DNA of 64,000 bases. It comes from an uncultured archaeon. GTDB taxonomy: Archaea > Thermoproteota > Nitrososphaeria > Nitrososphaerales > Gagatemarchaeaceae. The stretch lies in contig CAWFOU010000007.1 in the NCBI GenBank assembly GCA_963817525.1, positions 128,001-192,000 on the forward strand, in the 5' to 3' direction. Of this stretch, positions 6,441-32,032 are shown piece after piece. The translations under genes were made by a program, and so were the position numbers. Within the stretch, counting starts at the first letter, position 1. Every line of letters starts with the position of its first letter. The notes under the pieces are model-generated. The model had not been told where the DNA came from. It saw nothing but the letters and a program-made list of their open reading frames with translations, and made no database searches.

Positions 6441-6451
6441 CTGTCGAGTTG

Positions 6452-7448: not shown

Positions 7449-7588
7449 GGCTATGGGCCACGCACTACGAAGCCGAGGTCGAACCTTGGGTCTCCCTCCG
7501 GAATGTAGAGTGCCAGAGCAGTCGTCAGTCTCGGCATCACAGGAGTTGTATAAACTTATATAGACAGCTAGCTCGCAGTTAAAAAGCC

Positions 7589-7885: not shown

Positions 7886-7889
7886 CGAA

Positions 7890-8216
7890 TCAATAACCGA
7901 ACCTCTCTTCGTAGCTCTTGTGTTCCAGGGCTTCGAGCACAAGCACGGAAACCTCGTCACCATCCCGAGCGAGCGTGTAGATCGCCCTGAAGCCCTCGGG
8001 GAGATGGTAGCGGAACAGGTTGTTCACGCCGAACCTTCTGATGTAGTGCTTGGGAATCAGGCTCTTTCGGATGCTCTCTCCAGCAAACATGTTTTCCAGA
8101 AGGACCAACTTCATGTTGTCAAGCCACTTCCGCTCCGGGTCGTTCTGCGGGAGACTGTCGAGGTGAGCCTGGAGCCTTTCTTCAAACTTGACTGATTTCG
8201 GGGCTCTGGCGATTGC
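7890..8216 (-). CDS. RelE/ParE-like toxin-fold protein; 5' end possibly disrupted
   Basis: GESIRKSLIPKHYIRRFGVNNLFRYHLPEGFRAIYTL...HKSYEERFGY; frame stays open upstream of ATG 8114 to ~8216 without a canonical start. Confidence 0.6.
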   Translation of the reverse strand, partial: AIARAPKSVKFEERLQAHLDSLPQNDPERKWLDNMKLVLLENMFAGESIRKSLIPKHYIRRFGVNNLFRYHLPEGFRAIYTLARDGDEVSVLVLEALEHKSYEERFGY

Positions 8217-8378
8217 TCAGCTCACCGATTCGAAAAACACCATCGGCATAGTAAAACGTTCTGAGCCGATCCAGATAGAAGGCAGAGGAAGCGGTAAAAC
8301 TAGGAAGGCCCGGAAGCGTCGTCGCGCTCCAGGCGGGAGAGGAGAGCCAAGAACCTATCAAGGACCTCGGTGCTTGAC

Positions 8379-9496: not shown

Positions 9497-9570
9497 TCAA
9501 ACATTGGATATGAGAGTTTATCAGAGGACTCTGACTAAAGTATTTATAATAGAAACGCCGCTTTTTCCAA

Positions 9571-10140
9571 ATGTCTCGACTAGGCTCCATCCTAGTTGCT
9601 CTTATCGGCTTCGCAATTCTTAGCACAGTATTTGCAAGTATCCATCTCCTGACACTATCAGGTAACCGCCTCCAAGACTCGCTTCCCGCCGGAAGTTCGA
9701 CTCCGCAATCTTTGCTTTTCCTTCTGCCAGCAGTTCGGTTCCTTTCAAACAATTCATTTGTACTTGCGCCTACAAGTTGGCTCCTTGTCGGAGGTGTATG
9801 GATGTGGCGCGGGCGCCTCAAGTCCAGGTGGGAAGAACTTGGATTTGACTCGGATGTATTCCAGCTTTTCGTGAAGATGAAGGGCGGAAGAACCAAGCTG
9901 AAAGTGATGAATGCTCTTGGAAAGCCCAAAGATCGCTACCAATTGGCAAAAGAGCTCGGCTTGGACTGGAGAGCCGTTGACCAACACCTCGTAGCCCTGG
10001 CTCGTTGTGGGTTGGTTAGCAATGATGTAGTATATGGCAAGGTACGCATGTACGCACTGACATCGTCAGGAACACGACTTCTCAGGCTGCTGGAAGACAT
10101 GAATGCAGAGACAGATAAGATACCCGCCCACATCGACTAA
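9571..10140 (+). CDS. Membrane-anchored ArsR-like winged-helix regulator
   Basis: Two N-terminal hydrophobic segments, then MKGGRTKLKVM...RYQLAKELGLDWRAVDQHL...YALTSSG. Confidence 0.8.
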   Translation: MSRLGSILVALIGFAILSTVFASIHLLTLSGNRLQDSLPAGSSTPQSLLFLLPAVRFLSNNSFVLAPTSWLLVGGVWMWRGRLKSRWEELGFDSDVFQLFVKMKGGRTKLKVMNALGKPKDRYQLAKELGLDWRAVDQHLVALARCGLVSNDVVYGKVRMYALTSSGTRLLRLLEDMNAETDKIPAHID

Positions 10141-10510
10141 CTGAACTGAAGCGGTCCCTCTTGGGAATATGAGAGCCAAACTCTACACTACGCGCCCCGC
10201 CTCTTCGGGCTTGGTCGTGAAGCAGCCGTATTCCAGCGACGTCAGCATGTTGTAGAAGGGAACCCTCCCCTGCCCGTAAAGAGCATCCCGAACCCCTTGT
10301 CTACGCGCTCGATGAAGGCCTTCTCCTGGTCTTTCTTTCGACTTCATGACGGGGTCGCGTATATGGCTCATCAGCCATAACAAACCTAAAGAGAAGAAAG
10401 GAAGCTATGCGCGATAGCCCACACCAGCACCGGCAGGGGTGAAGAGTTCCTCGATGCGCTGCGGGGACCGGCCGAGCGTCCCGATCCGGGCGCGCCAGGC
10501 GACATTTGAG

Positions 10511-10780
10511 ATGAAATATCGAAGCAGGGTCGCGATCGCTTCCAACATCCTGCAGGTGGCTCGAGCGGGGAACGCGACCAAGACCAGGCTGATGTACGGG
10601 TCGTTCCTCTCCTTCGCCCAAATCAACGAGTACCTGGACTTCCTGCAGCTTAACGGACTCATCGTCCTGAGCGGAGAGACCCGCGTATACGCCCTCACCG
10701 AGAAGGGCCTGCGCTTCCTTCGCATCTATGACGAGCTGAGCGCTTTGGTCCCGTTCGACGGGCCCGTCCCGCCCGTCTGA
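10511..10780 (+). CDS. Winged-helix regulator (HTH_45/DUF4364-like)
   Basis: MKYRSRVAIASNIL...TKTRLMYGSFLSFAQINEYL...YALTEKG. Confidence 0.85.
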   Translation: MKYRSRVAIASNILQVARAGNATKTRLMYGSFLSFAQINEYLDFLQLNGLIVLSGETRVYALTEKGLRFLRIYDELSALVPFDGPVPPV

Positions 10781-11389
10781 GCCCTTAATGTGGCGTCGCT
10801 GATGACGCGACTACCTGCTTCCGTCGGGCTTCACAGCTTGTCGATGGTCGAGGAAGGTATCGACCCCTTCTGGCCTATGGCCTCGACGATCTAGTTCACT
10901 TTACCTCTGCCCCACGTCATCCTCTATTTGATGTCCCCAGAACAGCGGAGAAAAGGAGAGGGTAGGCGACCTTGAAGGCTCGTCGAGGACAACCCGGCAA
11001 CTTACACGAGTGATTCCGGAAATCTGATTGCCGACCAGCAGTTCGATCGGAGAGTCGAGAGCGGGGGGAGGACCAAGTATCAGTCACTGCAAGAGAGAGG
11101 AAGTCTGGCAAAAGCGGTCCAAAAAAAACAATAAGGCAGATAAGAAAGATATCCGCATTCATGTGAGGGCTCCAGGATGGCTCTTCGCCTTCCTGCTGAT
11201 GCGGAGGGGTGGGCACGGCTCGTTATTAGCCTAGCGACTCGACCGGGGTAGCAGCTCGCCACGCTCCGCTTTTACCGCATGCATTCGATAAGCGCTCCAC
11301 CTATGGTGGGCGTATTCTGACGATTCAACGGAAGCGGAGCATGCCACACTCAACGGGCAAAGCTCTCGGAGCTTGCGCTCCGCGCTCAG

Positions 11390-12660
11390 CGGATATAGAG
11401 TGGTCAGGCGTGCTGCCCTGTCCCGACTGTCGCGCTAGGCTACGCCGCCACCTCCTCTCTCGAGGCCTTCGAGCTTCTTGTTCGTGAGCGCTTCGTTCTC
11501 CCACCTCCAGTGCTCCCTCGTCTTCAGGACGTGGTAGGTCATCCGGAGCAGCTTCTTCATCGCGAGGACGTGGGCTCGCTTGCCGCTCTTTGTCCTCTCC
11601 TTCTGGTGGACGTAGTACCGGTGGAGGTGGGGGTTCCAGTGCATGACCGTGTCGGTCATGATCCCGAGGGTCCACCTGGCTATCGACGGGCCGTCCTTGG
11701 ACATCCTGCCTCTCCTCTTCACGTTCGCGCTGTCGCGCGTCTCCGGTATGATCCCGAAGAAGCTCGCCAGGTGGTCGACCGTCGGGAAGCGGTTGACGTC
11801 CCTGACGTACGAGGAGAAGAGCGCAGCGAGATAGTAGTCCACCCCGGGGATCGTCATGAGGAGCTTCACGTCCTCGTTGTCCTTTACGAGCGCCTTGGTC
11901 CTCTCCTCGAGCGGAGCGCATCTCTCCTCGTAGAACGCGATCTTCTCCATCATCGTCTTCAGGACGAGGTCCCTGTCGTCGCCGAACCTGATCGACCTGA
12001 TCGCCTCCCTCCTCGCGGCGCTGAAGTTGTTGTTCGCCTTCGGGAGCGTCGCGTAGACGTCCTCTCTCTTGAGGTAGCTGATCGCCGAGCTCTTCGTCCT
12101 CGCGATCTCCACGCCGAGCTTCACCCGCTGAATCAGGAGGCCCCTCAGGGTCTGTTCCTCCCTCGTGAGGAGGTGCGACTCTGGCAGCATGTCCATGAAG
12201 AGTAGCCTCGCGATCTTCTCGGAGTCTGCCCTGTCGTTCTTCTTCTTGGACCTCACGATGAGCGCGAGCTCCTTCGGGTGGGCGACCGTGATGTTCTGAT
12301 ATCCCATCGCCCGCAGCCTCCTGTTGACGGGATAGGCCATCGTGCTCGCCTCGTACCCGATCCTCGCGTCCTTCGGTATCCTGCTGGAGAAGAGGGCGTA
12401 GCCCGCGTCGTCCATGGAGAAGTTGAACCTCTCCGATATCTCGCCCAGGACGGAGTACATCGTCGCGACGCTGAACTCTTCGCCCAGGTCCAGTCCTACG
12501 GCAGGTGTCCTCGGAACGCTCAGTTGGCTCATTGCCCTTCGAACTGTCCTCGTGTCGTTTTTCTCTTTCTTCGTTGTCATTCTCTTCACCCTGACGCAGT
12601 AGCGACTCCCGTCCTGACGGGAGTCGCGGGCGAAGAGCCATCCGGAGGAGAGCCCTCACA
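11390..12660 (-). mobile_element. IS110-family insertion sequence (ends approximate)
   Basis: IS110 transposase plus upstream non-coding region with a strong hairpin; higher GC than the surrounding island. Confidence 0.75.
11435..12589 (-). CDS. IS110-family transposase (DEDD RuvC-like + Tnp20 domain)
   Basis: VGLDLG, GYEAST, KKNDRADS, LMTIPGV, FGIIPETRDSA, AMKKLLRMTYHVL. Confidence 0.95.
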   Translation of the reverse strand: MKRMTTKKEKNDTRTVRRAMSQLSVPRTPAVGLDLGEEFSVATMYSVLGEISERFNFSMDDAGYALFSSRIPKDARIGYEASTMAYPVNRRLRAMGYQNITVAHPKELALIVRSKKKNDRADSEKIARLLFMDMLPESHLLTREEQTLRGLLIQRVKLGVEIARTKSSAISYLKREDVYATLPKANNNFSAARREAIRSIRFGDDRDLVLKTMMEKIAFYEERCAPLEERTKALVKDNEDVKLLMTIPGVDYYLAALFSSYVRDVNRFPTVDHLASFFGIIPETRDSANVKRRGRMSKDGPSIARWTLGIMTDTVMHWNPHLHRYYVHQKERTKSGKRAHVLAMKKLLRMTYHVLKTREHWRWENEALTNKKLEGLERGGGGVA

Positions 12661-13011
12661 ATTCAGTCAACGGTATCAGAAGAGCGGCTGGATTAGGACG
12701 ACGGTGTCAACGATTCGCATGGGAACCCGGCCTTTACTTCTCCATCGTCCTGAAGAGGTACTCCTCGGCGTCCCCGTCCACGTGACCATTCAGCTTGCCC
12801 TGCAGTTGTTCACTCAACTTCAAGGCCAGCCTCTCGAGCTCGGCCCTTCACGGCTTCCTCTTCTCTTCCTGCTTAGGTTCCATGCCCTTGGCCTCCCGAC
12901 CTGGTCCCGTCCTGATAAGGTTGCCGCGCTCGGGTTTGGTTCTGTCCCGTTGACGGGCGATCCGCGAGCGTATCCCAAACTGGGTGATTTCGCCTTTGTC
13001 GTGGTCAGCCT

Positions 13012-13380
13012 TCAGTCGTCTTTCGGAGGGTCGATGAAGGTGTAAAGGGCGCTCATTCGCCCTCCGGTGACGACACCCACGTCCATCCCCGTAATATTCA
13101 TCGGTTCGCTCGGTGGCCCAAATGCCCACGAAAAGCGCCCGACGCCGTGAAACGCTTGTATCGGACCGAGTAAAGTAAAGAGATATCCGGGGAACTGATC
13201 ATGGAGGCTTGCGGCCGTCTCATCCAATTCTGCTTGGCCGTGATGAGGCCCGTCAAGATCGATGAAGACCCCGTCAGCAGTCCAGATATTCGCGATAGCG
13301 GCACGGCGTTTTTCTGCGTCACGCTCGTTGAACACCGTGTAGAGGTTCCGTTTGAGCAGGCTTTCTGTCATCTCTGGCAT
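13012..13380 (-). CDS. SnoaL-like / NTF2-family protein
   Basis: VFNERDAEKRRAAIANIWTADGVFID...WAFGPP...TGMDV. Confidence 0.85.
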   Translation of the reverse strand: MPEMTESLLKRNLYTVFNERDAEKRRAAIANIWTADGVFIDLDGPHHGQAELDETAASLHDQFPGYLFTLLGPIQAFHGVGRFSWAFGPPSEPMNITGMDVGVVTGGRMSALYTFIDPPKDD

Positions 13381-13584
13381 ATGAGTATCTCTTAGTAAAC
13401 ACGGGCTTCTATTTTAGCTGTCAAAAACCTGACGGACTGTAGTTGCAGAGGACTATCTCTTCGCCCCGTGACCGGCAGTTCGATGGCGTCCGCTCGCGCC
13501 AGGTCTTCATGTGCCGTACGCAAAAAGAGAAAAAGATGGAATACGGCTTCAAAGGCCTGGTCAGCATTTAACGCGGGTCGGGCA

Positions 13585-13723
13585 GGTTGCCATTCTCGGG
13601 ACGGCTTTTGGCAACCCTGCAGTCCAAATGGCAACCCTGGATGGCGATTTGGCAACCTCCTGCCTCGGTTTTGGCAACCCCAGGACAGGTTTTGGCAACC
13701 TTCGACCCGTAATTTGGCAACCC
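13585..13723. repeat. Iteron-like array: six direct TGGCAACC copies at 20-22 bp period plus one inverted copy
   Basis: GGCAACC starts at 13610, 13630, 13651, 13673, 13694, 13716; GGTTGCCA at 13585-13592. Confidence 0.9.
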
Positions 13724-14542
13724 TGCTCTGCCGCGCTGCCAAAGCCGCGAGCCGCGGGAGGCGGAGTCTGCCGGGCTCTTGAGGTCGGCAGGATGTCGGT
13801 ATAGACCTGGAAATCGGTCCAAAAAACACACAAGGGGGAGGGAATTAACTAACCCGCAACTCTCTACCTGCGCTCACATACGGCTACTGCGTCTCGATTC
13901 GATGTATTGGCAGCTTGGACGGAGGACGCTTCGGGCATGAGCTCGAGCAGGGTGGCCGACGGGACGAAGAGGTCTTTCAGGTCCGATGTAGAAGACGTAC
14001 TCGTTCGCTCTTTCGTATCGGGGGTCTTTGCTGTCCATGTGGGCGAATTAGGACGGCGGTGTCAAAGGTCTGCATTGGAGGAACCCGGCCGTCGCTTCCT
14101 GAAGAGGAGCTTCTCCGCATCCATTCTTCGTCCTGTCCAGGACGCGCATGCAGCGCCCTCCGACCACCCGGGGCTGTTTGATATTGGCGCGTCTACGGAT
14201 CTCCTAACGCGGGCGTGAGTGGTGAGGTAAATGTTCGGGGTGGTCGCGGCTCAGAATCATTGCCTCTAGGCACGAAGTAGCAATCGCGCAGCTCTGCCGC
14301 TTGGGCATAGCCGAAGCTACCCTGCTTCTCGGACGGCACACTCCTACTGGAGCGGGCCTCTGTTTTTTTGGGGGGGGTTGCTTTGGATAGCGGTCGAGAA
14401 GTACGCGGGGATATTTAACGCGGGCAGAGCGCGGCGGTTCCTGTCGCGCTTTCCATGACCTGGACACACTCGAGCCCAAAACACCCGGACGTCGCGAGCC
14501 GGTCAGGGCCGGGCCATGACGAAAAGGCGCGGGTGCCGATGG

Positions 14543-14650
14543 CAAAGTGGACATTCGGGTCGAAAGTGGACATCCAGAAGGGTTCTGAGGCTGAATAGTG
14601 ACATCGAAAAGGGGCGAAGGGTGACATTTCTGGTTCGAATGGTGACATCG
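14543..14650. repeat. Second short-motif array (GTGACAT/GTGGACAT x5)
   Basis: GACAT at 14550, 14569, 14600, 14623, 14644 with A/G-rich 5' context. Confidence 0.65.
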
Positions 14651-14741
14651 CAGGTCCACCTTGACCCCAGAGGGGCCCCTGGCGTGTCGAGTTTCGAAGA
14701 GTACGTGGGTCCCTAGGAGCACCGGACATTCGGATCGATGC

Positions 14742-14869
14742 TAATGCTCCACCCTGGAACATTAGCGCGTTTGGGCTAATGCTCCACCCTGGAACATTAT
14801 TGCACTTGGAGTAATGCACAACCCTTGTGCATTGTGGCTTTTGGGCTAATGCACAACCCTTGTGCATTA
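14742..14869. repeat. Four 23-bp palindromic repeats at exact 35-bp period
   Basis: TAATGCTCCACCCTGGAACATTA x2 (14742, 14777) and TAATGCACAACCCTTGTGCATT(G/A) x2 (14812, 14847), separated by 12-bp spacers. Confidence 0.92.
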
Positions 14870-15060
14870 ACCAGTCCGGGAGACCGTGATATCCAGGTCA
14901 GAGACGCAATCAGGCCCTAAGGATCATTTTCGCGGTTCTCGCCGTTCAGTCGCGGACGTTACCTCCTCTGGAGGTCCCGTGACCCGCTGGGCTTTCATCG
15001 AGCCGCACTCGAATAGTGATGGCGGGCTATTTATTTCAATATCTGGTATCCTGTTCCAGG

Positions 15061-15357
15061 TTAGTCGGTCCTGGATGACTGGTACTTCGACGCCCAGTCC
15101 ATGAGCTCGTGCATCTCGTTTTCCACATTGAACTTGTATGCCTGCGCGTTCCCTATCTTGCGCGTCGGCTCCATGACCTTCCTCTCGACGAACTTGTTCA
15201 CGACCTTCTGGACGGTCTTGAAGCTCATGCCGGTCGATTCTCCGAGCATGGATATCGTCTGCTCCATGTTGCCGACCAGCAGACTCTGGTCCAGGACTCT
15301 GGCTTGCGCGCTCCCAAATATCGAAAAGAATGGTCCTGATGACTCGTACTTTGACAT
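15061..15357 (-). CDS. Small winged-helix DNA-binding protein
   Basis: IFGSAQARVLD...TISMLGESTGMSFKTVQKVV...TRKIGNAQAYKFN. Confidence 0.8.
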   Translation of the reverse strand: MSKYESSGPFFSIFGSAQARVLDQSLLVGNMEQTISMLGESTGMSFKTVQKVVNKFVERKVMEPTRKIGNAQAYKFNVENEMHELMDWASKYQSSRTD

Positions 15358-15554
15358 CTTTCTGCCTCTACAGGCGTTATTGAGAGCCGCACATTTTTAA
15401 GATTTGCCTAAATTCCATTGTTATTGGAAATATGTCCGCTGTTGAGAGGAGCCGCTCTGTGTTGCGCGGTGCAAACAAAAAGTCGCTAGAGGGACAGCAC
15501 CACAGCGCTCAGGCAAGAATATTTATATATAGTTATATAACTCACACGAGCGCC

Positions 15555-15854
15555 TTGCTGAAGAGCGACTCTGTGCGGGGACGTAGACCGGATAGTGCCT
15601 CGCATTCACCTACGCTCGATAGTATTCTGATGGTTGAAGCAGCCATAAAGCAGAGCAATACCCCGCCCTCGAAGGTTCAGCTCTGGCGTTCCCTCCCCAG
15701 GAGGATGATGTACCAGACGTTCCAGAGCATCGTGCAGTACCTGGAGGCATCGAATAAGATCATATTCGATGGAAGGAGGAGGATAGTCTGGGTTGCCGTC
15801 GACAATCCCAAGCTAGAGGCACTAATCAGGACCGGCGTGCGCCTCCGAGGCTAG
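15555..15854 (+). CDS. Small winged-helix-like protein (paralog of 7589-7885)
   Basis: HSPTLDSILMVEAAIK...LWRSLPRRMMYQTFQSIVQYLE; TATA-rich TTTATATATAGTTATATAA just upstream of TTG 15555. Confidence 0.75.
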   Translation: MLKSDSVRGRRPDSASHSPTLDSILMVEAAIKQSNTPPSKVQLWRSLPRRMMYQTFQSIVQYLEASNKIIFDGRRRIVWVAVDNPKLEALIRTGVRLRG

Positions 15855-15867
15855 ACAGAGAAACACT

Positions 15868-16218
15868 TCAGACGTCGTACCCGAACTTCTTGGCGTAGTC
15901 CTTGTGGGTCTGGAAGAAATCAATCACTCTCACTATTCCTCTCCCGTCACGATTCAGAATCACAGTGTATGAGATCCTCGCGCCTTTCGTGAGGTTGGCC
16001 TTGTAGACGTTCCCCAACCCCATCCGCTTGTATTCCTCTGGCCACCTGTCCTTCGGGACGAAGGCGCCTGCTTTGAGCGGGGCCCTCTCCAGGCTTTCAA
16101 CCAGCGAATCAATCGACTTCTTCATTTCCTCGCCTTCGTTCAGCGACCGATAGTATTCCCGGAACTCAGCGGGCACCGTGACCTCGAAGGTCTTCTCTTT
16201 CGGAGACTTCCGACTCAT
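15868..16218 (-). CDS. RelE/ParE-like toxin-fold protein (paralog of 7890-8216)
   Basis: AGAFVPKDRWPEEYKRMGLGNVYKANLTKGARISYTV...THKDYAKKFGY. Confidence 0.65.
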   Translation of the reverse strand: MSRKSPKEKTFEVTVPAEFREYYRSLNEGEEMKKSIDSLVESLERAPLKAGAFVPKDRWPEEYKRMGLGNVYKANLTKGARISYTVILNRDGRGIVRVIDFFQTHKDYAKKFGYDV

Positions 16219-16521
16219 TTCGCAGCCACGCTCGGGGCCTTATTCACGCCTGCCCACGATGGAGTGGATCGTTCGAGTTAAACACCCCTGTTCCGCCCAA
16301 TTTTTTGCCTCATCTTCCCGTAGAGCTTCATCGCGCCGTCCCTGCCGGACCCTCCCGGGCAGAACAGGTCTATCACGACCTAGACGGGTTCGGCCAAGGT
16401 GAATTCTCCCTTCCTCCGCGCGGTATCTAGAATCAGCTCGGAAAATGATCACAGCCTGTAGCGTTGTGAATCTCAGGCTCGCGTTAAGAGCTTCTCGCCG
16501 CACACTCTGACGAACCGGAAG

Positions 16522-16740
16522 ATGACGCTCGAAAATGACGCGGTCGACATGCGCGCATTCAAGGAGCGCCTGAGGGAGAAGCTGCCCCCTGACAGCCCCT
16601 TGCTGGCCGACCTGCTCGCTGAGCCAGACTCGATGCCCGTCGGGAAGGCCGAGGTCCTGGTCCCTCACTATCTGCAGCGGCTGGAAAGAGAACTCGAGGG
16701 CAAGGGAGCGTCGAGAGGACCGCTCCTCAGGCGCGCGTGA
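16522..16740 (+). CDS. Small protein convergent with the integrase (possible directionality/regulatory factor)
   Basis: 72-aa ORF with GC-rich coding pattern like the integrase, ending 5 bp from the integrase stop. Confidence 0.55.
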   Translation: MTLENDAVDMRAFKERLREKLPPDSPLLADLLAEPDSMPVGKAEVLVPHYLQRLERELEGKGASRGPLLRRA

Positions 16741-16745
16741 GTCTC

Positions 16746-18079
16746 TTAGGCTGTCCTCAGCCCTATCACGGCCCTTCCGTCGGGCAGGTCCCGCTTGTAG
16801 TCCCACCCCTGCTCTATCCAGCGCTCGAGCTCCGCGACGGGCACGACCTTCTGCGTCCCCTCCTTCAGCCCGAGCATCTGCTTCGACTTTGCGTGGATGA
16901 GCTGCTGGAGCTGCTCCATCGTGATCCGGGTGATGTCGCCGACCCCCAAGAGCTCCTCGTCCGTGTAGCCGAACATCTTGAGCGCCTCGGTCCGCGCGGT
17001 GTTCACGACTTCGTCCCTGCTTATGCTCGCCTGGACCAGGGTCGCCAAGTGCTTCTCCGAGGCCTTTGCGTATGCCTGCCTCATACCCTCCAGCAGGTCC
17101 TCGGGGAGGTGTCCCTTGTTGAGCGTGTAGACATGCTCGATGTCCCCGGTGTGCCCCATCCAGAACACGCGGTAGTCCTTGATCACCTTTCCCTCCTGCT
17201 CGGCGCCCATCATCCTCGTGTCGAAGTACCTCCGCAGGACGTATGGCCTCCAGTCGAACCCCGCGGTCCTGATGGCGTGCCTTACCGCGTCGCATACGTT
17301 GCACACCCTCACGAACCTGCCGATGTAACGGGGGTTGAACTGGTTGGCCGTGAGCAACGGGGAGGCCCCGTCGATCTTCTCCTTCAGGATGTGCATCCTC
17401 CACTCCAGGTACTGCTTCACGTAGCCGCACCCCTGTTCGGGCAGGAAGGAGATGTACTGCCTCCCCGTCTTGGATATCGTCCTCCTGACGACCACAATGG
17501 CGGGCACCTTCAGGAACTCGACCTTCTCCTCTCCTGCGTCGCCCTTTCGTATGGTCATCTCGGGCAGGTCTGACACCCTCAGGCCGTCGTGTTCGCGTCC
17601 CTGTTCCCCAGCACCCCCGGCCTCACGCCGGAGAACGCCATGAGGGCGCAGGCGACCCTCTTCTGGAGGTCAGCGTGCTCGAAGATCGAGTGAAGCTCCT
17701 GGTGGGAGGGGACGCGCTCGTTGTCGTACACCCCCACGTCCCTGGCGAGCCTCACCTGCCTCGTCACCTCGAGGTCGTTGAAGCGCCACCACCCCTTCAG
17801 CTGCTTGACGCACCCGGCGATGGTCGAGCTCCTGTTGCCGTCGCTCTCCAGGCGGGAGACCACCCTGAACAGGAAGGCCCCGGCCTCTCCCTTGGACATG
17901 ACGGCCAGGTCCCTCTGCGTGACCTGGAGCAGCATGCAGACCCTCCCGACCCTGCGCAAGGTCACCTCGGCGTTCACCTTGCTCCCCCTCGCGATGTTCT
18001 CTATCCACGAGGCGAAGGCTTCATCTTCCAGCAGGTGTCTGTACTTGCTGTTCGGGAACAGCTGCGGCTTGGGGGTCAC
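16746..18079 (-). pseudogene. Tyrosine site-specific integrase, frameshifted near 17590
   Basis: ALMAFSGVRP (R) in 5' ORF; RPYVLRRYF, WMGHTGDIEHVY (R/H/Y) in 3' ORF; GAC GCG AAC AC GAC GGC CTG carries an apparent extra AC that breaks the frame before DGLRVSDLPE. Confidence 0.85.
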
Positions 18080-18138
18080 GCCATTCCGGGGAATTTCTCC
18101 TAATAACGGCGGGGCTTCGACTCGTGCGGGCAGGCGTA

Positions 18139-18151
18139 CCGTCGGGCCCGC
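18139..18151 (+). repeat. attR of the integrative element (copy of tRNA-Lys 3' end)
   Basis: CCGTCGGGCCCGC identical to 3232-3244, ~60 bp upstream of the integrase start. Confidence 0.85.
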
Positions 18152-18417
18152 TAATTAACCCCATTCTGAGCTTTGTTTCGTCAGAAGGGGCGGAATGCAG
18201 GGATGCGGCGTTGACCTAGACTGTTTCAGGGAATTGTCGAAGGTCGCCTTCGCGTCACCAAGATTGCGCCGGCGAGGACCAGTAGGCGGAGGCGCAATCA
18301 TCGTAAGGGACGGCGAGGTGCAGGCCGGACAACCTCCAGATTCAGGCGCAATCTTTCGCCAGATTCAAGCCTGAAATCGTCTCTCTTTGGGCGAGTTCTT
18401 TCTGATCCGTGGGTATA

Positions 18418-20517: not shown

Positions 20518-20518
20518 C

Positions 20519-23665: not shown

Positions 23666-23761
23666 TGTGCTTCACGGGGAAGAAGCAAAAGGAGATTCGG
23701 TGACTAATACGTTTGTCCGAGTGTTTAGAGCGTGGTCGCAGGGATTTGAACAGTTGCGGTC

Positions 23762-23802
23762 GGATTCGCTTAATATTCTAAGCGACTCCCCTCGGGCCCG
23801 CC
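23762..23802 (+). repeat. att-like site, type A (11-6-11 palindrome + tRNA 3' end)
   Basis: GGATTCGCTTA ATATTC TAAGCGACTCC CCTCGGGCCCGCC. Confidence 0.8.
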
Positions 23803-24225: not shown

Positions 24226-24226
24226 C

Positions 24227-24583: not shown

Positions 24584-24626
24584 GCGGCAAGCCCTTCGTC
24601 GAAGATTCTATCTTCCAACTTGACCG

Positions 24627-24676
24627 GGAATCCACTTTGAGAACCCGTTCAGGGGCGGGTCCCGTCGGGCCCGCCT
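24627..24676 (+). repeat. att-like site, type B (conserved ~35-bp leader + tRNA 3' end)
   Basis: GGAATCCACTTTGAGAACCCGTTCAGGGGCGGG TCCCGTCGGGCCCGCCT; last 17 bp identical to 3230-3246; followed by a type-A palindrome at 24678-24705. Confidence 0.85.
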
Positions 24677-25085
24677 TAGATTCGCTTGAGATGTTAAGCG
24701 AATCCAACTAAACTTGCTTAGAGTCCCAGGCGAAATCCATTTAGCGTAAGTACTTCCATCGCCCTCGGGTTCGAAGCCAAGGGATCGATTCTGCCGGCCC
24801 GTCGATTCCTGCGAGCAAAATTCAAAGGATCAACTTGATTCTACGGGCATTCGATGCTAAGAAGGATTCGCATAGATTCCCCCCAAGTGTTCTTGCTTCG
24901 ATGGCCCACGGGTTTCTCGTCGTCCGGCTCGACTTCCTGAGGAGGGAAATTACATTCGCCCTCTGATCGAGAGGCGGCCCTCTCTGCCGCTTGGCGTGCA
25001 TCTACGACCCTAATTTCAAGTTCGCCTTCAGCGTTGAACAGACACAACGGCTTTATGACGCGGCTCTTCGATTAATCGAGAAGTA

Positions 25086-27041
25086 ATGTCCCAGGGCGTA
25101 CGGAGACTTGCGGCTATAATGTTCACGGACATGGTGGGCTTCACAGCTCTGGGCCAACGGAATGAACAACTTTCCATTGCCCTGGTTGACGAACAAAGGA
25201 AACTGCTGAGGCCAATCTTCACCAGACATAACGGTAGAGAGGTCAAGACTATGGGAGATGCCTTCCTCGTTGAATTTCCAAGCGCACTGGATGCCGTGAG
25301 GTGTGGGTACGACATCCAAAGAGCCACCAGAGAATTCAATGTCTCGTTACCAAGCGAGAAGAGGGTACACCTGAGAGTCGGGGTTCACCTTGGGGACGTT
25401 GTGGAGTCTCAGGGGGACATTTCGGGCGATGCGGTAAACTTGGCATCGCGAATAGAGCCCTTGGCAGAAGATGATGGTGTGTGCATTACCCGTCAGGTCT
25501 ACGACCACGTCAAGAATAAGTTCGAGCTCCCATTGGCAAGCCTCGGGAGCAAATCCCTAAGGAGCATCGCCGAGCCGTTGGAAGTTTACAAGATGATAAT
25601 GCCGTGGGAAGAACGGAATGCCTCACAATCAGAACACTTCGACAGGAAAAGAATTGCAATCTTACCCTTTGCTAACATAAGCCAGGGTGACAACGACGAG
25701 TACTTCGCAGACGGCATGACAGAGGAGCTGATCTCCACACTATCTAGAATCGGAGGTCTGAAAGTCATTTCCCGCACTTCCGTGATGCGATACAAGGCCT
25801 CGGGCAAGAGCGTGAGCGAAATTGCCAAGGAGCTAGGAGTAGGGACGATCCTGGAGGGAAGCGTCAGGATGGCTGGCGGCCACCTGAGGGTCTCGGCCGA
25901 GCTCATAGATGCGGGAAGAGACGAGCATCTCTGGTCACAAGACTACGACAGGGATTTGGAAGACGTGTTCAAGATTCAGACGGAGATCGCCCAGAGAGTT
26001 GCTGAGGCACTGAGAATAGAGCTTCTTTCGGTCGAAAGAGAGGACATTGAACGCCGGGTGACCGAAAGCCCTCAGGCTCATAAGCTCTATCTGAGGGGGC
26101 GTCACTATTGGAACGAAAGGACCAAGGATAGCGTCGATAAAGCTGTAAAATACTTCGAGGAGGCCATCAAGCTGGATTCCAAATACGCGCTCGTCTATGC
26201 CGGGCTTGCTCGTTGCTACATCCTCTACGGTGCATGGGGCTTCATGAGACCGAATGATTCATTTCCCAAGGCCAAAAGGTACGCAATAAAGTCCATAGAG
26301 ATCGACCCGAGGTTGGCTGAGCCGCATACCATCTTTGCCGACGTCCTCAATGATTACGAAGGGCGCTGGGTGGAGTCGGAGCTAGAATACAGGCGGGCAT
26401 TGGAGCTCAATCCTAGCTACGCTACGGCACACATGTGGTATGGGCTCTTGTTAGTATTCTTGACAAGGTTTGACGAGGCTCGCGACCATATCAGGCTAGC
26501 CATCGAGCTTGATCCGCTCACCCATGTCGGTGCATTGAATCTTGCTGGAGTGTCACTCTATGAGGGAAGACCGCGAGACGCCGTAGAACAGATTGAAAAT
26601 GCAATTGAGGGAGACCCCGAATTCGCCCCCAACCACAATGCTCTCGCTTGGGCATACTGCCTTGACTCAAGAACCGACGAAGGGATCAGCGAGATGAGGA
26701 AGGCATTGGCAATGTCTGGCGAACCTATTGATAAAGCGGACTTGGCCTGCCTACTAGGCTTCTCCGGTCGAACGGAGGAGGCCCGCAGTATACTCAAAGA
26801 AATCAAAGAGACTTCGAAGGTTACCTATGTCTCCAAGATGAAGATTGCGCAAGTCTTGTTTGCCTTGGGAAATTACGATGAGGCATTCAAGCTCCTCGAA
26901 GAGGCGAGGGAAGATCATTCGCTCTTCACCCAACACGGGAGCTATCTCCTTGACATGAGATTGCTTCCTTTGTTCGCTCCGGTGCGAGAGGACAGAAGGT
27001 GGCAGACGTTTGTAGCAACCTTAAAGATCCCAGAAGCCTAG
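25086..27041 (+). CDS. Class III adenylate/guanylate cyclase-like + TolB-like + TPR protein
   Basis: RRLAAIMFTDMVGFT, KTMGDAFL, GDAVNLASRIE, IAILPFANIS...YFADGMTEELI, TPR repeats. Confidence 0.92.
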   Translation: MSQGVRRLAAIMFTDMVGFTALGQRNEQLSIALVDEQRKLLRPIFTRHNGREVKTMGDAFLVEFPSALDAVRCGYDIQRATREFNVSLPSEKRVHLRVGVHLGDVVESQGDISGDAVNLASRIEPLAEDDGVCITRQVYDHVKNKFELPLASLGSKSLRSIAEPLEVYKMIMPWEERNASQSEHFDRKRIAILPFANISQGDNDEYFADGMTEELISTLSRIGGLKVISRTSVMRYKASGKSVSEIAKELGVGTILEGSVRMAGGHLRVSAELIDAGRDEHLWSQDYDRDLEDVFKIQTEIAQRVAEALRIELLSVEREDIERRVTESPQAHKLYLRGRHYWNERTKDSVDKAVKYFEEAIKLDSKYALVYAGLARCYILYGAWGFMRPNDSFPKAKRYAIKSIEIDPRLAEPHTIFADVLNDYEGRWVESELEYRRALELNPSYATAHMWYGLLLVFLTRFDEARDHIRLAIELDPLTHVGALNLAGVSLYEGRPRDAVEQIENAIEGDPEFAPNHNALAWAYCLDSRTDEGISEMRKALAMSGEPIDKADLACLLGFSGRTEEARSILKEIKETSKVTYVSKMKIAQVLFALGNYDEAFKLLEEAREDHSLFTQHGSYLLDMRLLPLFAPVREDRRWQTFVATLKIPEA

Positions 27042-27079
27042 TTTTTTCGGCTCTCGGTCTCGAGACCTGTCCTGCAGCA

Positions 27080-27118
27080 GGGTTCGCTTGGAACATTAGG
27101 CAATCCCATCGGACCCGC
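27080..27118 (+). repeat. att-like site, type A (degenerate)
   Basis: GGGTTCGCTTG GAACAT TAGGCAATCC CATCGGACCCGC. Confidence 0.7.
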
Positions 27119-27489
27119 TAGCTTATCCAAACACGCTTCACCTCGGTGAAGTGCGGGTCATCTGTGACACAAGAGACGCGCAGACTCTTCGACGTTGCCA
27201 TGATCAACGAATCAGCCATGGGAACTCGCAGTCTATGGCTTATCCTAGCTCCCTCCTCCGCTATCCCGGCGCTCACATCGACTATGGTATACTCGTTTGC
27301 AATCGTGCGGGTGCGCAGCTCGGCAACCGTCTTGTCATCGTGTTCAATGGTCTGTTTGTATATCTCGTAAATGCTGATTGATGACGCGAACGGAGTCTTT
27401 GCCTTCTCGAAGATCGCCTTGAGCTTCCTGGTTATCTCCGCGTCCTTTGAAGTGAAGACGGCCCAGAAATACCTGGTCTCGAAGAGCAT
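27118..27489 (-). CDS. vapC: VapC-type PIN toxin
   Basis: MLFETRYF...SIYEIY...MADSLIMAT...VTDDPHF. Confidence 0.88.
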   Translation of the reverse strand: MLFETRYFWAVFTSKDAEITRKLKAIFEKAKTPFASSISIYEIYKQTIEHDDKTVAELRTRTIANEYTIVDVSAGIAEEGARISHRLRVPMADSLIMATSKSLRVSCVTDDPHFTEVKRVWIS

Positions 27490-27492
27490 GAG

Positions 27493-27717
27493 TCACCCCT
27501 CAGATGAGCGCATCTCGTCAAGCAGTCGGAAGGACTCCTCGGTGGACAGCTTGCTCTTTCCTGCAAGGTCGAAGATTGATGGAATTTTTGTGAGTACTAC
27601 CTTGTCCCCTTCCGTGTCGACCATTAGCCTTGTTCCCTCCTGTATTCCGAGTTTCTTTCTTATGGATATAGGTATCGTCGTCTGCCCTCGCCTGGTGACA
27701 ACAACCTCTTGAGCCAT
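27493..27717 (-). CDS. vapB: AbrB/MazE-type antitoxin (VapB)
   Basis: VTRRGQTTIPISIRKKLGIQEG; directly upstream of the PIN gene. Confidence 0.88.
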   Translation of the reverse strand: MAQEVVVTRRGQTTIPISIRKKLGIQEGTRLMVDTEGDKVVLTKIPSIFDLAGKSKLSTEESFRLLDEMRSSEG

Positions 27718-27840
27718 GAGAGTGGCACGAATTCCTACTATAAAGCAATTCCTACCGCCGTAGGATTCCTATCTGCCCCGTCAGTCAGCTTAGGCGGGCT
27801 GGCGCATAGGTTCCTAAGCGGGCTTCTCCGATGCGACCAA

Positions 27841-27889
27841 GGGAATCCGCTTTCAGAACCTGTTCAGGGGCGGACCCCGTCAGGCCCGC
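27841..27889 (+). repeat. att-like site, type B
   Basis: GGGAATCCGCTTTCAGAACCTGTTCAGGGGCGGACCCCGTCAGGCCCGC. Confidence 0.85.
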
Positions 27890-28018
27890 TAATGATAAGC
27901 TCAATTTGAACTCTTTTTGAGTATGGCGAACATATTTGTGCCATTCCAGCGATTGTCGAAGCTAATCCGTCTGAATCGAACCCCTAAATATCGTCACCCA
28001 CTACTTACGCCTCGCGTC

Positions 28019-28414
28019 TTGAACGACAAGAAGGGAACGGGACCTGGCCAAGTCAGCGAGTCTGAACTTGCTGATCGAATATTCTCGTTCGACGACGCCA
28101 TCATGTTCTGCGTGATTATGAGCTCCGACGGGGACGTTCACGTGATACGGTCGCAGCCGGGAAGCGGGAGCCTGGTACGGAATAAGGGCGACGTCGAAAT
28201 GCTAGCCAAGCGGTGGGCTATCGTCAGGGGGATAGACGACACGGCAGACAAGTTGTTGGGACAGTCGCGTAGCGCAATAATCCTTCGCGACAAGATTACA
28301 TTGATGAGCATAAACGCGCCCGGCGGAAGGTGCGCGTTCGTCGGGGCACGCCCGGACGTCGATATTCGAAAGGTAAGAGAGATGGAAGAGGCAGTCGCCC
28401 TACTCAGCCCATAA
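28019..28414 (+). CDS. Small roadblock/profilin-like protein (DUF6659-like)
   Basis: ADRIFSFDDAIMFCVIMSSDG...LLGQSRSAIILRDKITLMSI pattern; start TTG 28019 inferred. Confidence 0.55.
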   Translation: MNDKKGTGPGQVSESELADRIFSFDDAIMFCVIMSSDGDVHVIRSQPGSGSLVRNKGDVEMLAKRWAIVRGIDDTADKLLGQSRSAIILRDKITLMSINAPGGRCAFVGARPDVDIRKVREMEEAVALLSP

Positions 28415-28463
28415 CTGGCGAGGCTGGAGGTCAGCTCCCAGGGGGGGGCGCGGCGTCGCGCTT

Positions 28464-28506
28464 GAATCCGTTGAAAAACCGTTCGGAGGCGGCCCCGTAG
28501 GTCAGC
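28464..28506 (+). repeat. att-like site, type B (degenerate)
   Basis: GAATCCGTTGAAAAACCGTTCGGAGGCGGCCCCGTAGGTCAGC. Confidence 0.55.
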
Positions 28507-28577
28507 TGCCCTTCGCGAGGGTTGGATTCGAACTTCGAGTGCACGGCAACCCTATCGCGCAAGAGTCCTCTTGAGGA

Positions 28578-29438
28578 CTATAGGATATTCAGGTCGCTAG
28601 CTGCGTAATAAGAAGGAACCAACGGGCGAAATCCGAGACTTCTGATTTTTTCAGTGTTAAGGAGGCCGCTCCACGGGTTTATCAAAGGAGTCGCCGGGTC
28701 TGCCAGCTTCGCGGTCTGACCCGCCAGGCGGATGACCTCTTGTAGAGTAATCGGCGAGTCATCGGCGACGTTGCATATCTCGCCCCCCATGGCAGAGACG
28801 CCCAATGCCAGCTTCACGGCTTGCGCAACATCCAAATGGTGCAAAAGATGCAACCTATACGCCGGATGACGGGCCCACCGCTCAAAGAGCGGAATCGATT
28901 CTGGTAGATGCGGGTCACCGGCGCCGTAAACGAAGCTGAAGCGCAGGATGCTTACGTCAAGTTGTCTCGCCGCGTGCATGCCAAGCAAGAGTTTCTCCGA
29001 AGCCACTTTGCTCGAGGGATAGGCAGCCGTTGGACTGACGTGGTCGCTTTCTATGGCAGGCGCGGCGTCATTGCTGTAGACCGTGCTTGTGCTTGAAAAG
29101 ACAAAGCGAACCTCTGGGTTGATTTGGGAAGCCGCTCCGGCTATGTTTTTCGTGCCGGTCTCGTTTATGCTTTTGATCTTATCAGCGTCTTCGCTGCGAA
29201 GACTGCGAAAGAAAGCCGCAAGGTGCACGATTGCATCGACCCCGACAAGGGCTTCTTGCAGGCTCTCAGGCTGCATGATGTCGCCGACGAAGGTCTCTGC
29301 CCCTTTGGCTTTGAGCTTCCCCGCGGTTTCGTCATCGGTTCTTCGGACAAGTATTCGTACGGAATGACCGCCGGTGAGCAGAGACGGAACTAATCTGCTT
29401 CCTACTTTTCCAGTTGATCCCGTTACCAGGACGTTCAT
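28578..29438 (-). CDS. NAD-dependent epimerase/dehydratase family protein
   Basis: VLVTGSTGKVG, IVHLAA, YPSSK. Confidence 0.9.
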   Translation of the reverse strand: MNVLVTGSTGKVGSRLVPSLLTGGHSVRILVRRTDDETAGKLKAKGAETFVGDIMQPESLQEALVGVDAIVHLAAFFRSLRSEDADKIKSINETGTKNIAGAASQINPEVRFVFSSTSTVYSNDAAPAIESDHVSPTAAYPSSKVASEKLLLGMHAARQLDVSILRFSFVYGAGDPHLPESIPLFERWARHPAYRLHLLHHLDVAQAVKLALGVSAMGGEICNVADDSPITLQEVIRLAGQTAKLADPATPLINPWSGLLNTEKIRSLGFRPLVPSYYAASDLNIL

Positions 29439-29540
29439 TTTCTAGACTGCGAGGTAGTCGACGCGCCTATAAGAATGCTTTGTATAAAGTAAATTGGTAT
29501 AAAGTAATTAGATATAGAGGCGGGCAACCAACCGCCCCGC

Positions 29541-29984
29541 GTGGAAGCCAGTCCGAACGCCGGATCTCTTGGCCACTGGGTGAAGATGATAAACCATGAC
29601 GCGACCATCAAGGGGAACCGCCTCCTCAAACCATTCGGTCTGACTCAGAGCGCCTGGTACGTCCTCTATCAGGTCAACCAAGCGGAACGGATCTCCCAGA
29701 AGAAGCTTCAGGGGACCCTAAGAATAGAGTCCGGAAGCATGGCGATGATCGTGGATAGTCTCGTCCGAAAAGGGTGGCTCGAAAGAACCTCCAGCGAGAA
29801 AGATCGCCGAGCCAATTATCTCAAGCTCACCCCCAAGGGCGCCGCTCGGTGGAAGACAGTTCCGGACGTAGCATCTGTCTTACGAAAGGAAATGATGCGG
29901 GGCATCTCGGAGGCGGAGGAGAAAGCCGGCATAGCGGTACTGAAGAAGTGTTGGGCTAACCTGGAGAAGGCGACCGCTGTCTAA
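29541..29984 (+). CDS. MarR-family regulator
   Basis: GLTQSAWYVL...VDSLVRKGWLER...DRRANYLKLTPKG; divergent from the epimerase. Confidence 0.9.
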   Translation: MEASPNAGSLGHWVKMINHDATIKGNRLLKPFGLTQSAWYVLYQVNQAERISQKKLQGTLRIESGSMAMIVDSLVRKGWLERTSSEKDRRANYLKLTPKGAARWKTVPDVASVLRKEMMRGISEAEEKAGIAVLKKCWANLEKATAV

Positions 29985-30011
29985 CAGAAAGAGTCCGCGA
30001 ATCAATTCATC

Positions 30012-30051
30012 GGATCCGCCTAGAGGATTAAACGCATCCCGTGGGGCCCGC
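30012..30051 (+). repeat. att-like site, type A
   Basis: GGATCCGCCTA GAGGAT TAAACGCATCC CGTGGGGCCCGC. Confidence 0.75.
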
Positions 30052-30095
30052 TCCCATTACGGTTAATACACAGACCCCACCCAGTCACGGGCGTC

Positions 30096-30926
30096 TTGCC
30101 CACGATTAAGACGAAAGATGGGACTCAGATTTACTACAAGGACTGGGGGACGGGACAGCCTGTCGTCTTCAGCCACGGTTGGCCGCTCAGCGCCGACGCG
30201 TGGGAAGACCAGATGCTCTTCCTGGGCTCGCGCGGATATCGTTGCATAGCGCACGACCGCCGCGGTCATGGGCGCTCCGACCAGCCCTGGAACGGCAACG
30301 ACATGGACACCTACGCTGACGACCTTGCCGACCTTGTCAAGCATCTCGACCTCAAGGGCGCCGTTCACGTTGGTCACTCGACCGGGGGCGGCGAGGTCGC
30401 GCGCTACATTGGGCGGCATGGGACGAAGCGCGTCGCCAAGGCCGTTCTCATCGGGGCAGTGCCACCCATAATGGTGAAGACGCCGTCCAACCCTGGCGGC
30501 CTGCCTATCGAGACGTTCGACCAGATCCGCGCGGGAGTCCTGGCAGACCGCTCGCAGTTCTGGAAGGACCTGTCGATGCCGTTCTACGGCGCCAATCGCC
30601 CCAACTCCAAGGTGTCGCAAGGCCTGCGAGACTCGTTCTGGCTCCAGGGGATGTGGGCAAGCCACAAGGCGGTCTACGACTGCATCAAGCAGTTCTCCGA
30701 GACGGATTTCACCGAAGACCTCAAGAAGATCGACGTGCCGACGCTAGTCCTCCACGGGGACGACGACCAGATAGTGCCCATTGCGGACTCGGCGTTGCTG
30801 ACAGCCAAGATAGTTAGGAAGGCCACTCTGAAGGTGATCCCCGGAGCGCCCCACGGCATGTGCTCGACCCTCAAGGACACCATCAACGCAGAGCTGCTGG
30901 CGTTCCTGAAGCAAGGCCTTTCATGA
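30096..30926 (+). CDS. cpo: Non-heme chloroperoxidase / perhydrolase (alpha/beta hydrolase)
   Basis: [50 protein letters not shown]. Confidence 0.92.
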
Positions 30927-31016
30927 GCTCCCGAGACCGCTGAATCCCGAGCGGCTACGTTCCGATCCTTGGCAGGGCCGCCTCCTTATTATTATCAAGA
31001 CCTATCTCGGACAATC

Positions 31017-31868
31017 ATGACAGACTCGACGCAGAGCTTCTGGCCCAACGATGCACGGCTCGTCATCTCGGTTTCCATGCAGTTTGAAACCGGATCTCAA
31101 CCCGACCGTGGAGCCGCGAGCCCCTTTCCGCCTCTTGATCCCAAGTACCCTGACCTGCCCGCGCAAAAGTGGTACGACTATGGCTTCAAGGAAGGCATCC
31201 CCAGGCTCCTCGACCTGTGGGACCGGGTCGGCATCAAGGTGACGTCTCACATGGTCGGCCGAGCCGTCGAAAGACACCCTGAACTTGCGAAGGAGATCGT
31301 CGATCGAGGCCACGAGGCGGCCGGCCACGGTCAGACCTGGGAGCCGCAGTACTCCATGACCTCCGAGCAGGAGCGCGCCGGGTATCAGGCCAGCGTCGAC
31401 ACGATCCGGAGGGTGACGGGCACACGCCCGGTCGGTTTCAACGCGTTCTGGCTTCGCGGCACTACGAGCACCCTGGGAATCCTCCAAGACCTGGGCTTCA
31501 TCTACCACATCGATGACGTCAGCCGAGACGAGCCCTTCACGGTGACCGTGAAGGGGAAGCCCTTCGCCGTCGTGCCCTACACGATTCGCAACAATGACAT
31601 CGTGCGTTTTGATTCGCCGGCGATGACGAACGCCGCTTACCTGCAGGACGTTAAGGATGATTTTGATGTCCTCTACGCAGAGGCGGCCTCCCGCCGCCGG
31701 ATGATGTCGATCAGCACGCACGACCGGATCTCCGGCATCCCAGGACGAGTGAAAGTGCTGGAGGAGTTCATCAGGTATGCCCAAGGACGTGACGACGTCG
31801 TGTTCATGCGGAAGGACGAGATCGCAAGGTGGATCTTGTCGGCTTCCGACGCGCCTCGCGAAGAGTGA
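31017..31868 (+). CDS. Polysaccharide deacetylase family (PuuE-like) protein
   Basis: FWPNDARLVISVSMQFE, YGFKEGIPRLLDL, GHEAAGHG, MMSISTHDRISG. Confidence 0.88.
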   Translation: MTDSTQSFWPNDARLVISVSMQFETGSQPDRGAASPFPPLDPKYPDLPAQKWYDYGFKEGIPRLLDLWDRVGIKVTSHMVGRAVERHPELAKEIVDRGHEAAGHGQTWEPQYSMTSEQERAGYQASVDTIRRVTGTRPVGFNAFWLRGTTSTLGILQDLGFIYHIDDVSRDEPFTVTVKGKPFAVVPYTIRNNDIVRFDSPAMTNAAYLQDVKDDFDVLYAEAASRRRMMSISTHDRISGIPGRVKVLEEFIRYAQGRDDVVFMRKDEIARWILSASDAPREE

Positions 31869-31901
31869 GCCGACCGGCCACCCATTGAGCGAGAGATTTT
31901 C

Positions 31902-31949
31902 GGAGTCCATTTGCAGAACCCGTTAAGGGGCAGACCCCGTCGGTCCCGC
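31902..31949 (+). repeat. att-like site, type B
   Basis: GGAGTCCATTTGCAGAACCCGTTAAGGGGCAGACCCCGTCGGTCCCGC. Confidence 0.8.
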
Positions 31950-32032
31950 TGCCAATACTTGCCTGGAAGTATTGGATAGAGTTATGTTTCCGTCGAGGTG
32001 GCGTCTCGGGTCGAGAAGGGGTTGGTAAGAAA

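Follow-up and report, generated by a model that had tools for sequence, protein, structure and literature searches.

Why should unrelated genes in an archaeal genome end in one and the same short motif, followed each time by a copy of a transfer RNA (tRNA) end? The question is posed by a stretch of 64,000 nucleotides (contig CAWFOU010000007.1, positions 128,001 to 192,000; here called the window) from an uncultured archaeon of the Gagatemarchaeaceae, where a motif named type B recurs in a genomic island anchored at a tRNA gene. A sequence-only reading of this DNA had regarded the leader of the motif as either a shared attP arm or an attC-like single-strand structure, implying that unrelated cargo was packaged with one common mobilisation end. 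In our analysis, type B is probably a recombination site at the right end of small cassettes devoid of integrase genes, where it would combine a cassette-borne arm with the core of a double-strand attachment (att) site on which a recombinase of a family here called X would act. The idea of a shared att arm, which gives unrelated cargo one mobilisation end, is supported by breaks of homology at the sites, with the leader staying with the upstream cassette, by a core that matches the anchoring tRNA, and by a tyrosine recombinase at the heads of the arrays.

The type B consensus finds three matches without mismatch in the window, all on the + strand, at 24627-24674, 27842-27889 and 31902-31949 (the second had been placed at 27841), against a mean of 0.00 chance matches over 100 dinucleotide shuffles. 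A degenerate copy at 28464, also reported before, can be aligned over the whole motif, yet weakly (nhmmer E 0.51). The tRNA end in these sites is real, and its source is a probable tRNA-Lys(UUU) at about 3131..3245 (+ strand), read by eye, with insertions in the D-loop and the variable region, which anchors the island. Its 3' end reads CCCGTCGGGCCCGCC, of which the final 15 nt are the core sequence, and its last 13-17 bases recur on the + strand at 18138, 23788, 24661, 27105, 27876, 30038 and 31936. This tRNA is 81-90% conserved in 15 matches among 14 genomes of the genus. ARAGORN and Rfam gave no match for the window, and neither called the anchor; with introns allowed, ARAGORN returned mostly implausible calls and still not this tRNA, and many tRNAs of the window's genome seem to carry non-canonical introns.

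The cores at 23788, 27105 and 30038 are preceded by a different and strongly palindromic leader (GGATTCGCTTAA..TTAAGCGA), which defines type A, and the positions and sequences of the sites confirm the order A, B, A, B, B, A, B along the array. After the type A site at 23751..23802 (nhmmer E 5.4e-13), each site terminates one cassette, all sites lying on the + strand. Type B site 1 (24627..24675; 64.9 bits) closes a DUF5615 toxin-antitoxin cassette, a type A site (27068..27120; profile match) an adenylate-cyclase/TPR cassette, and type B site 2 (27842..27890) a PIN toxin-antitoxin cassette, whose copy in a related genome, G009, is B-ended too. The degenerate type B site (28464..28510) terminates the cassette of an open reading frame (ORF) of 165 aa and is intact in the G009 copy; a type A site (30000..30052; profile match) follows an epimerase/MarR cassette, and type B site 3 (31902..31950; consensus match) an alpha/beta-hydrolase and deacetylase cassette. 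As had been claimed, the genes 5' of the B copies are unrelated by their Pfam assignments: a DUF5615 PIN-like toxin, an opposite-strand PIN toxin pair, the Pfam-less 165-aa ORF and a polysaccharide deacetylase. The same diversity holds for the units between sites, which comprise the DUF5615 toxin pair, the adenylate cyclase-TPR protein, the PIN toxin pair, the 165-aa ORF, the epimerase with MarR, the alpha/beta hydrolase with deacetylase, and an SDR. None of the six cassettes from 23.8 to 32 kb contains a recombinase gene. Over 25 inter-site units the median length is 1.9 kb (0.68-5.9 kb); counting ORFs from 70 aa upwards, 19 units contain one or two and one unit contains none. The cassettes of the proposed system would then be units without integrase, with a median of 1.9 kb and mostly one or two genes, bearing type B at their right-hand end.

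The motif itself can be divided into three parts, which would be a conserved outer leader of 25 nt (GGAATCCACTTTGAGAACCYGTTCA), an inner arm (GGGGCGGG) that is the inverted repeat of the invariant GGGCCCGCC, and about 7 variable bases between the two arms, which appear to copy the 3' strand of the T-stem of one tRNA. In an alignment of 58 copies, columns 37-43 are the least conserved (about 50-60%) and are flanked by the well-conserved GGGGCGGG and GGGCCCGCC, mutually inverted repeats. Arrays elsewhere begin directly 3' of tRNA-Arg(TCG) (three loci), tRNA-Arg(CCG) or tRNA-Arg(CCT), and that of the window behind tRNA-Lys; all these tRNAs end in CGGGCCCGCC, and the preceding 7 bases vary among them. 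The 7 bases 5' of the core string CGGGCCCGC track the tRNA of their own array, which is the closest one in 13 of 17 sites, with three ties and one site nearer to another tRNA; the site at 24627, compared by eye, has a single mismatch to its own tRNA in these 7 bases. Inverted arms flanking an exchange region are the established anatomy of the sites of lambda Int, Cre and Xer. By this analogy, we infer that the core has the anatomy of a tyrosine-recombinase core site, with two inverted binding arms around an exchange region matched to its partner.

How the sites relate to their surroundings was seen by comparing the flanks of 65 A and B sites in the fetched loci, a flank being counted as shared when it aligned over at least 120 bp. 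Thirteen pairs of sites share the upstream flank, 12 the downstream flank and four both, one of these being an artefact of overlapping hits, and the alignments extend to the edge of the site and then end. The flanks on the two sides of an A or B site are inherited independently. All nine pairs that share only the upstream flank join B with B, and three of the eight that share only the downstream flank join A with B, which assigns the leader to the left-hand cassette. The same modularity is visible in cassette order: by blastn, a 20-kb stretch of G009 reads X, core, 165-aa cassette, B, PIN cassette, B, hydrolase cassette, against PIN cassette, B2, 165-aa cassette, degenerate B, epimerase/MarR, A, hydrolase in the window. 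The cassettes common to both genomes are 81-85% identical, and each break in their order falls in the core. Two neighbouring cassettes of the window were never matched in one piece in 40 relatives. Independent contigs from four soil runs, which may include the source sample, span the joints at 27105, 27876/28464, 30038 and 31936, so that these joints are not assembly errors; one contig end left loose at 24627 belongs to the flank of a different B copy.

Searches with PF00589 found no recombinase near any array. The candidate emerged when ORFs were clustered across loci: five of these share a protein of about 470 aa. This protein, X, has no Pfam hit and stays below the PF00589 threshold; a precomputed PF00589 hit accompanies 11 of the 120 X homologues listed, and several homologues are named "site-specific integrase" in their source databases (Nitrososphaerales, Nitrososphaerota, Bathyarchaeia). 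X carries the motifs SGVRPG, RRTISKxGRQY, WRPYVLRRYF and WMGHxGDIEHVY, which supply RPG, K, LRR, GH and Y; a profile of 31 homologues finds archaeal XerA in the PDB (4a8e, E 6.7e-7), and the top Foldseek matches of its AlphaFold model (mean predicted local distance difference test score, pLDDT, of 82.5) are XerA, IntI 2a3v, XerH, Cre and lambda Int. By motifs, profile match and predicted fold, X is a tyrosine recombinase.

The position of X is as regular as that of the sites. In the window it lies on the - strand (16746..18133), recovered by tblastn in two pieces (aa 11-188 and aa 189-470) on either side of a frameshift near 17588-17594, with one stop read through. A core copy, at 18138, lies directly against the 5' end of the gene. 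This copy (ACCGTCGGGCCCGCT; 18126..18152, + strand) has a conserved leader of its own and an attI-like position, and both the arrangement and the leader recur at six other loci. Within the closest X clade, whose members are about 70% identical or more, seven loci include the 5' flank of the gene on their contig, and in all seven X reads away from an adjoining core: the window, G000:C1:1153337 in the window's own genome, G012:C5, G009:C2, G001:C92, G011:C218 and G011:C69, with a common leader of about 60 nt (..CCTAATAACGG..). Further sites lie within 10 kb in five of six loci, with none at G001:C92, the contig of G011:C218 being too short to count. X is full-length beside its core at G000:C1, where the intact paralogue occupies 1153337-1154746, and at G012:C5. 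Distant paralogues (35-45% identity) show the ordinary layout, in which X follows the tRNA and reads away from it. Truncated N-terminal fragments of the X family also abut a tRNA 3' end or a core in the window's genome (G000:C7:84095-84731 and C7:987563-988394); they are decayed integrases of other islands.

From these elements a mechanism can be proposed. A tyrosine recombinase of the X family would bind both inverted arms on duplex DNA and exchange strands within the tRNA-matched stretch, and the outer leader may serve as an accessory or arm-type binding region. Cassettes would thereby be inserted, excised and shuffled among the tRNA 3' end and each core copy behind it.

How far does the motif reach? 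A profile built from the three window copies finds five more full B copies in the window's genome (C7:984 kb, C7:986 kb, C1:776 kb, C1:1054 kb and C1:1151 kb) and a partial copy at C1:785 kb (C1:785417). Surveyed with a sequence-only covariance model, the motif occurs in 24 of the 36 other family genomes and, elsewhere in the order, in three of 24 genomes from different families, with up to 16 copies per genome, usually as same-strand clusters with a spacing of 0.4-10 kb; type A sites share arrays and orientation with type B sites. With a degenerate 23-base pattern, 77 loci were found among prokaryotes, each species being represented by one genome. The full motif is present in 54 of the 57 loci titled Nitrososphaerota, Thaumarchaeota or unnamed archaeon and in none of the remaining 20 (19 bacterial and one from Methanobacterium), one match being confined to the pattern; among the viral contigs of IMG/VR there was one pattern match, again without the full motif. 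Two cassettes were seen beyond the window in this context. A second epimerase-MarR cassette of the same genome (G000:C1:788945-790104, 81% and 75% identical to window 28519-29969) lies near the partial B site at C1:785417, and a gene of the FtsZ/tubulin family occurs as a B-ended cassette in several genomes (L002 8304-9347, L033 7312-8358, L028 9234-10262).

Three other explanations have to be weighed against the one preferred here, and the first of them concerns the fold of the leader. An attC site of integrons is an R''/L''-L'/R' imperfect hairpin, used as a folded single strand with the crossover at G/TT of R', and if type B were such a site, the strand of leader plus core would fold into an imperfect hairpin recognised by its shape. 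The divergent recombinase, the proximal site and the cassette array do resemble an integron, and the structures matched by X include IntI 2a3v. Two segments, counted on 10 and then on 58 copies, could form stems: the hairpin proposed by the sequence-only reading (TCCGCTTT with GGGGCGGA, apex GAAC/GTTC) and a second palindrome of GGCGGGYCC with GGGCCCGCC. Both pair in register in 83-87% of cells, against at most 60% when the partners are slid. Nevertheless, the values over 58 copies are those of the shuffles, 83.4% against 83.3% for the hairpin and 87.3% against 87.2% for the palindrome, and the observed pairing was reached by 227 and 221 of 500 shuffles, respectively. The compensatory substitutions that had been suggested as a check stay at chance level (pairs changed on both sides: three against 2.9 expected in the hairpin, two against 3.3 in the palindrome), the covariation term of RNAalifold is 0.04, and the consensus pair 9-33 of the hairpin is unpaired in 43 of the 58 copies. 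DNA folds of the three window copies gave minimum-free-energy z-scores of -1.80, 0.00 and -0.36 for the top strand and -2.23, -0.63 and -0.04 for the bottom strand, so that B2 and B3 fold no better than shuffles on either strand. The top strand can be drawn as proposed, but these data give the fold no support. There is, moreover, no terminal R''/R' pair of GTTRRRY type, and the exchange maps to the tRNA-like core. The lack of covariation above the shuffled level indicates that the symmetry is conserved at the level of the sequence. This agrees better with a protein that binds duplex DNA than with selection for a hairpin, and we regard an attC-like site as very unlikely. Canonical attC boxes, sought by eye, were also rejected, GAAC/GTTC being a mere 4-bp palindrome in mid-leader, and so was a reading of the leader as a tRNA anticodon arm, with its candidate stems unpaired.

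The array could otherwise be a series of passive scars, left when successive integrase-bearing elements entered at one tRNA and then decayed, the leader being an inherited similarity of attP arms that is no longer used. That tRNA att sites are used again and again in tandem is well known, as far as the available parts of the sources describe it (PMC6563490, PMC8371274 and the tycheposon preprint), truncated X fragments do lie beside tRNA ends or cores (G000:C7:84111-84731 and C7:987753-988394), and the soil-run contigs show no activity. However, the cassettes between sites are free of integrase remnants, and the leader keeps about 80% column identity over 58 copies across the family, between unrelated flanks; nor would decay alone yield the same cassettes in different orders with clean breaks in the core, which makes the scars an unlikely account. 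The remaining alternative takes the motif for a dispersed repeat of the miniature inverted-repeat transposable element (MITE) or repetitive extragenic palindromic (REP) kind, or for an RNA element of tRNA-like form, for instance a terminator or a 3' tag, unrelated to site-specific recombination. Its spread over at least six regions of the window's genome and a 3' palindrome that ends in GCC(A), like an acceptor minihelix, would agree with this. The copies, though, always form arrays on one strand that follow a tRNA gene or X, and their core corresponds to the tRNA concerned; they show neither terminal inverted repeats nor target duplications, occur 3' of genes in either orientation, and match no Rfam family. 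A generic repeat unlinked to tRNA ends, the case that the sequence-only reading had set against its own proposal, is not what was found: the motif is dispersed, and each full copy has a tRNA-end-like core. We consider this last alternative extremely improbable.

Several observations weigh against a cassette system driven by X. The contigs of the four soil runs, compared with 17000-36900, gave no excision product, circle or alternative joint at any core. The spacer of the inverted arms measures 4-10 nt depending on how they are drawn, which makes the cut positions guesses. Crude ORF calls in the cassettes place 36 ORFs on the strand of the site and 20 on the opposite one, a weak orientation bias. 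Many arrays, among them those of G018:C3, G026:C2, G014:C3 and G009:C3:1.23 Mb, have neither X nor a PF00589 gene in their vicinity, and all the compared genomes are metagenome bins. Finally, the X of the window is frameshifted, and its array may be frozen or served in trans by the paralogue that accompanies an array with Arg-type cores.

Some further features of sites and cassettes were recorded along the way. An inverted palindrome resembling type A stands about 5-50 nt past some cores (window 24679-24705; L028 14266-14303; L005 10623-10664); it belongs to a cassette start that is found repeatedly (CAACTTTTCACGCTCAACC...), so that the left ends of cassettes also group into families. At L128 (G011:C69), positions 1745-1797 combine an inner arm of B type (GGCGGGTCCCGT) with an unrelated AT-rich outer leader, which suggests more site types than A and B. 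The alpha/beta hydrolase of the window cassette (30096-30926) has homologues of 79-83% identity in six relatives (L042-L047), in the coding region only and with no sites nearby, as one would expect if a chromosomal gene was recruited into the cassette; being limited to the coding region and lacking sites, these matches carry no information on mobility.

Between the anchor tRNA and the cassette array lies an integrated element (3246..18125), delimited on one side by the tRNA end and on the other by the core copy at 18138, with X at its far end. The G+C content falls from about 0.65 to about 0.52 immediately past tRNA-Lys and rises again near 36 kb. The cargo of the element includes, by Pfam, a proteasome-like gene and a DUF4420 gene, and the segment 13799-18177 is 92-97% identical to a stretch of G009. 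The proteasome/HslV-like gene lies beside the DUF4420 gene, of the PD-(D/E)XK type, at 5277-7348, a pair that may be a defence module. At 14742-14869, also within this X-bearing element, there are at least three tandem units of 35 bp, each with an internal palindrome TAATGC..GCATTA, which could be iterons or a replication origin. When an empty site was sought in 22 relatives of the genus, the left flank of the island, the tRNA and the right flank were not syntenic, and the far boundary, at about 35-36 kb, is for this reason not fixed.

Among known systems, integrons are the closest in layout. Archaeal integrons (Ghaly et al. 2022, PMC9668308), as the available part of that source presents them, have in common with the arrays described here a tyrosine recombinase gene divergent from a proximal site, followed by an array of cassettes of one or two genes that include toxin-antitoxin pairs, with a site at the 3' end of each cassette and an order that varies between genomes. 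A divergent recombinase with an adjacent attI-like site heads the array in seven of seven loci. In contrast to attC sites as described there (PMC9668308), B sites have neither the R''-L''/L'-R' architecture nor covariation. X also differs in falling below the Pfam threshold for PF00589, in spite of its predicted tyrosine-recombinase fold with IntI 2a3v among the matches, and the exchange would take place in a copy of a tRNA 3' end, in an array anchored at a tRNA gene and with a weakly biased orientation. The array has an integron-like layout and, judged by its sites, is probably not an IntI/attC integron.

In integrases of the Sulfolobus spindle-shaped virus (SSV) type, attP lies within the integrase ORF and the gene is split upon integration, whereas here the core lies at or just 5' of the start of X, which is full-length beside it at G000:C1 and G012:C5. 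Cis-mobilizable elements (CIMEs), known from the systems of integrative and conjugative elements and integrative and mobilizable elements, are att-bounded units without a recombinase that accrete in tandem at tRNA att sites. The units of our array are likewise bounded by direct repeats of the adjacent tRNA 3' end, and a recombinase is present in one of them (X, 16746-18133, frameshifted) and missing from the six cassettes between 23.8 and 32 kb, as in CIME-like accretion at a tRNA target. Tycheposon islands of Prochlorococcus are tRNA-anchored and grow by repeated insertion (10.1101/2020.12.28.424599). With both of these, going by the available parts of the sources, our arrays share partial tRNA copies as the sole separators, some att-bounded units without a recombinase and growth by repeated insertion at a tRNA. 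They differ in that integrase-less units are here the rule, are very small and carry one of two family-wide arms (A or B), in that the same arm is re-fitted to at least four tRNAs, and in that a recombinase clade stands at the distal, array-facing end. The integrated elements of Thaumarchaeota (Krupovic et al. 2019, PMC6563490), of 2.6-140 kb and each defined by its own integrase, have the same phylum, targets at tRNA 3' ends including those of intron-bearing tRNAs, tyrosine recombinases and short att cores (median 17 bp); in the available part of that work we found no description of integrase-less cassette arrays with conserved arms, of which its supplements may hold more. More generally, the literature searched, as far as it was accessible, contained no account of family-wide conserved cassette ends re-fitted to several archaeal tRNAs, again with supplements that may hold more. 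The repeated use of a tRNA att site in tandem was already known, and so were att-bounded units that lack a recombinase; what our arrays add is a pair of standard ends, a core re-matched to different tRNAs and a candidate recombinase at the array head.

A wider hypothesis, which we put forward tentatively and at somewhat less than even confidence, is that soil Nitrososphaerota possess an integron analogue of independent origin, where a dedicated clade of tyrosine recombinases with its own proximal site would handle cassettes of one or two genes with an A or B end, the exchange region could be re-written to fit different tRNA 3' ends, and several tRNA genes would serve as capture platforms. The compact site, with a conserved arm beside a short target-matched stretch, suggests a recombinase that can be retargeted by changing a few bases, which is directly testable in vitro. 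The models of A, B and X offer a sequence handle for mapping the flexible gene pools of these genomes. If the cassettes are active, they would give abundant uncultured soil archaea a second means of capturing genes in the manner of integrons, one that apparently does not depend on IntI/attC, and would explain the exchange of accessory genes among them, such as toxin-antitoxin pairs, regulators, hydrolases and FtsZ-like genes.

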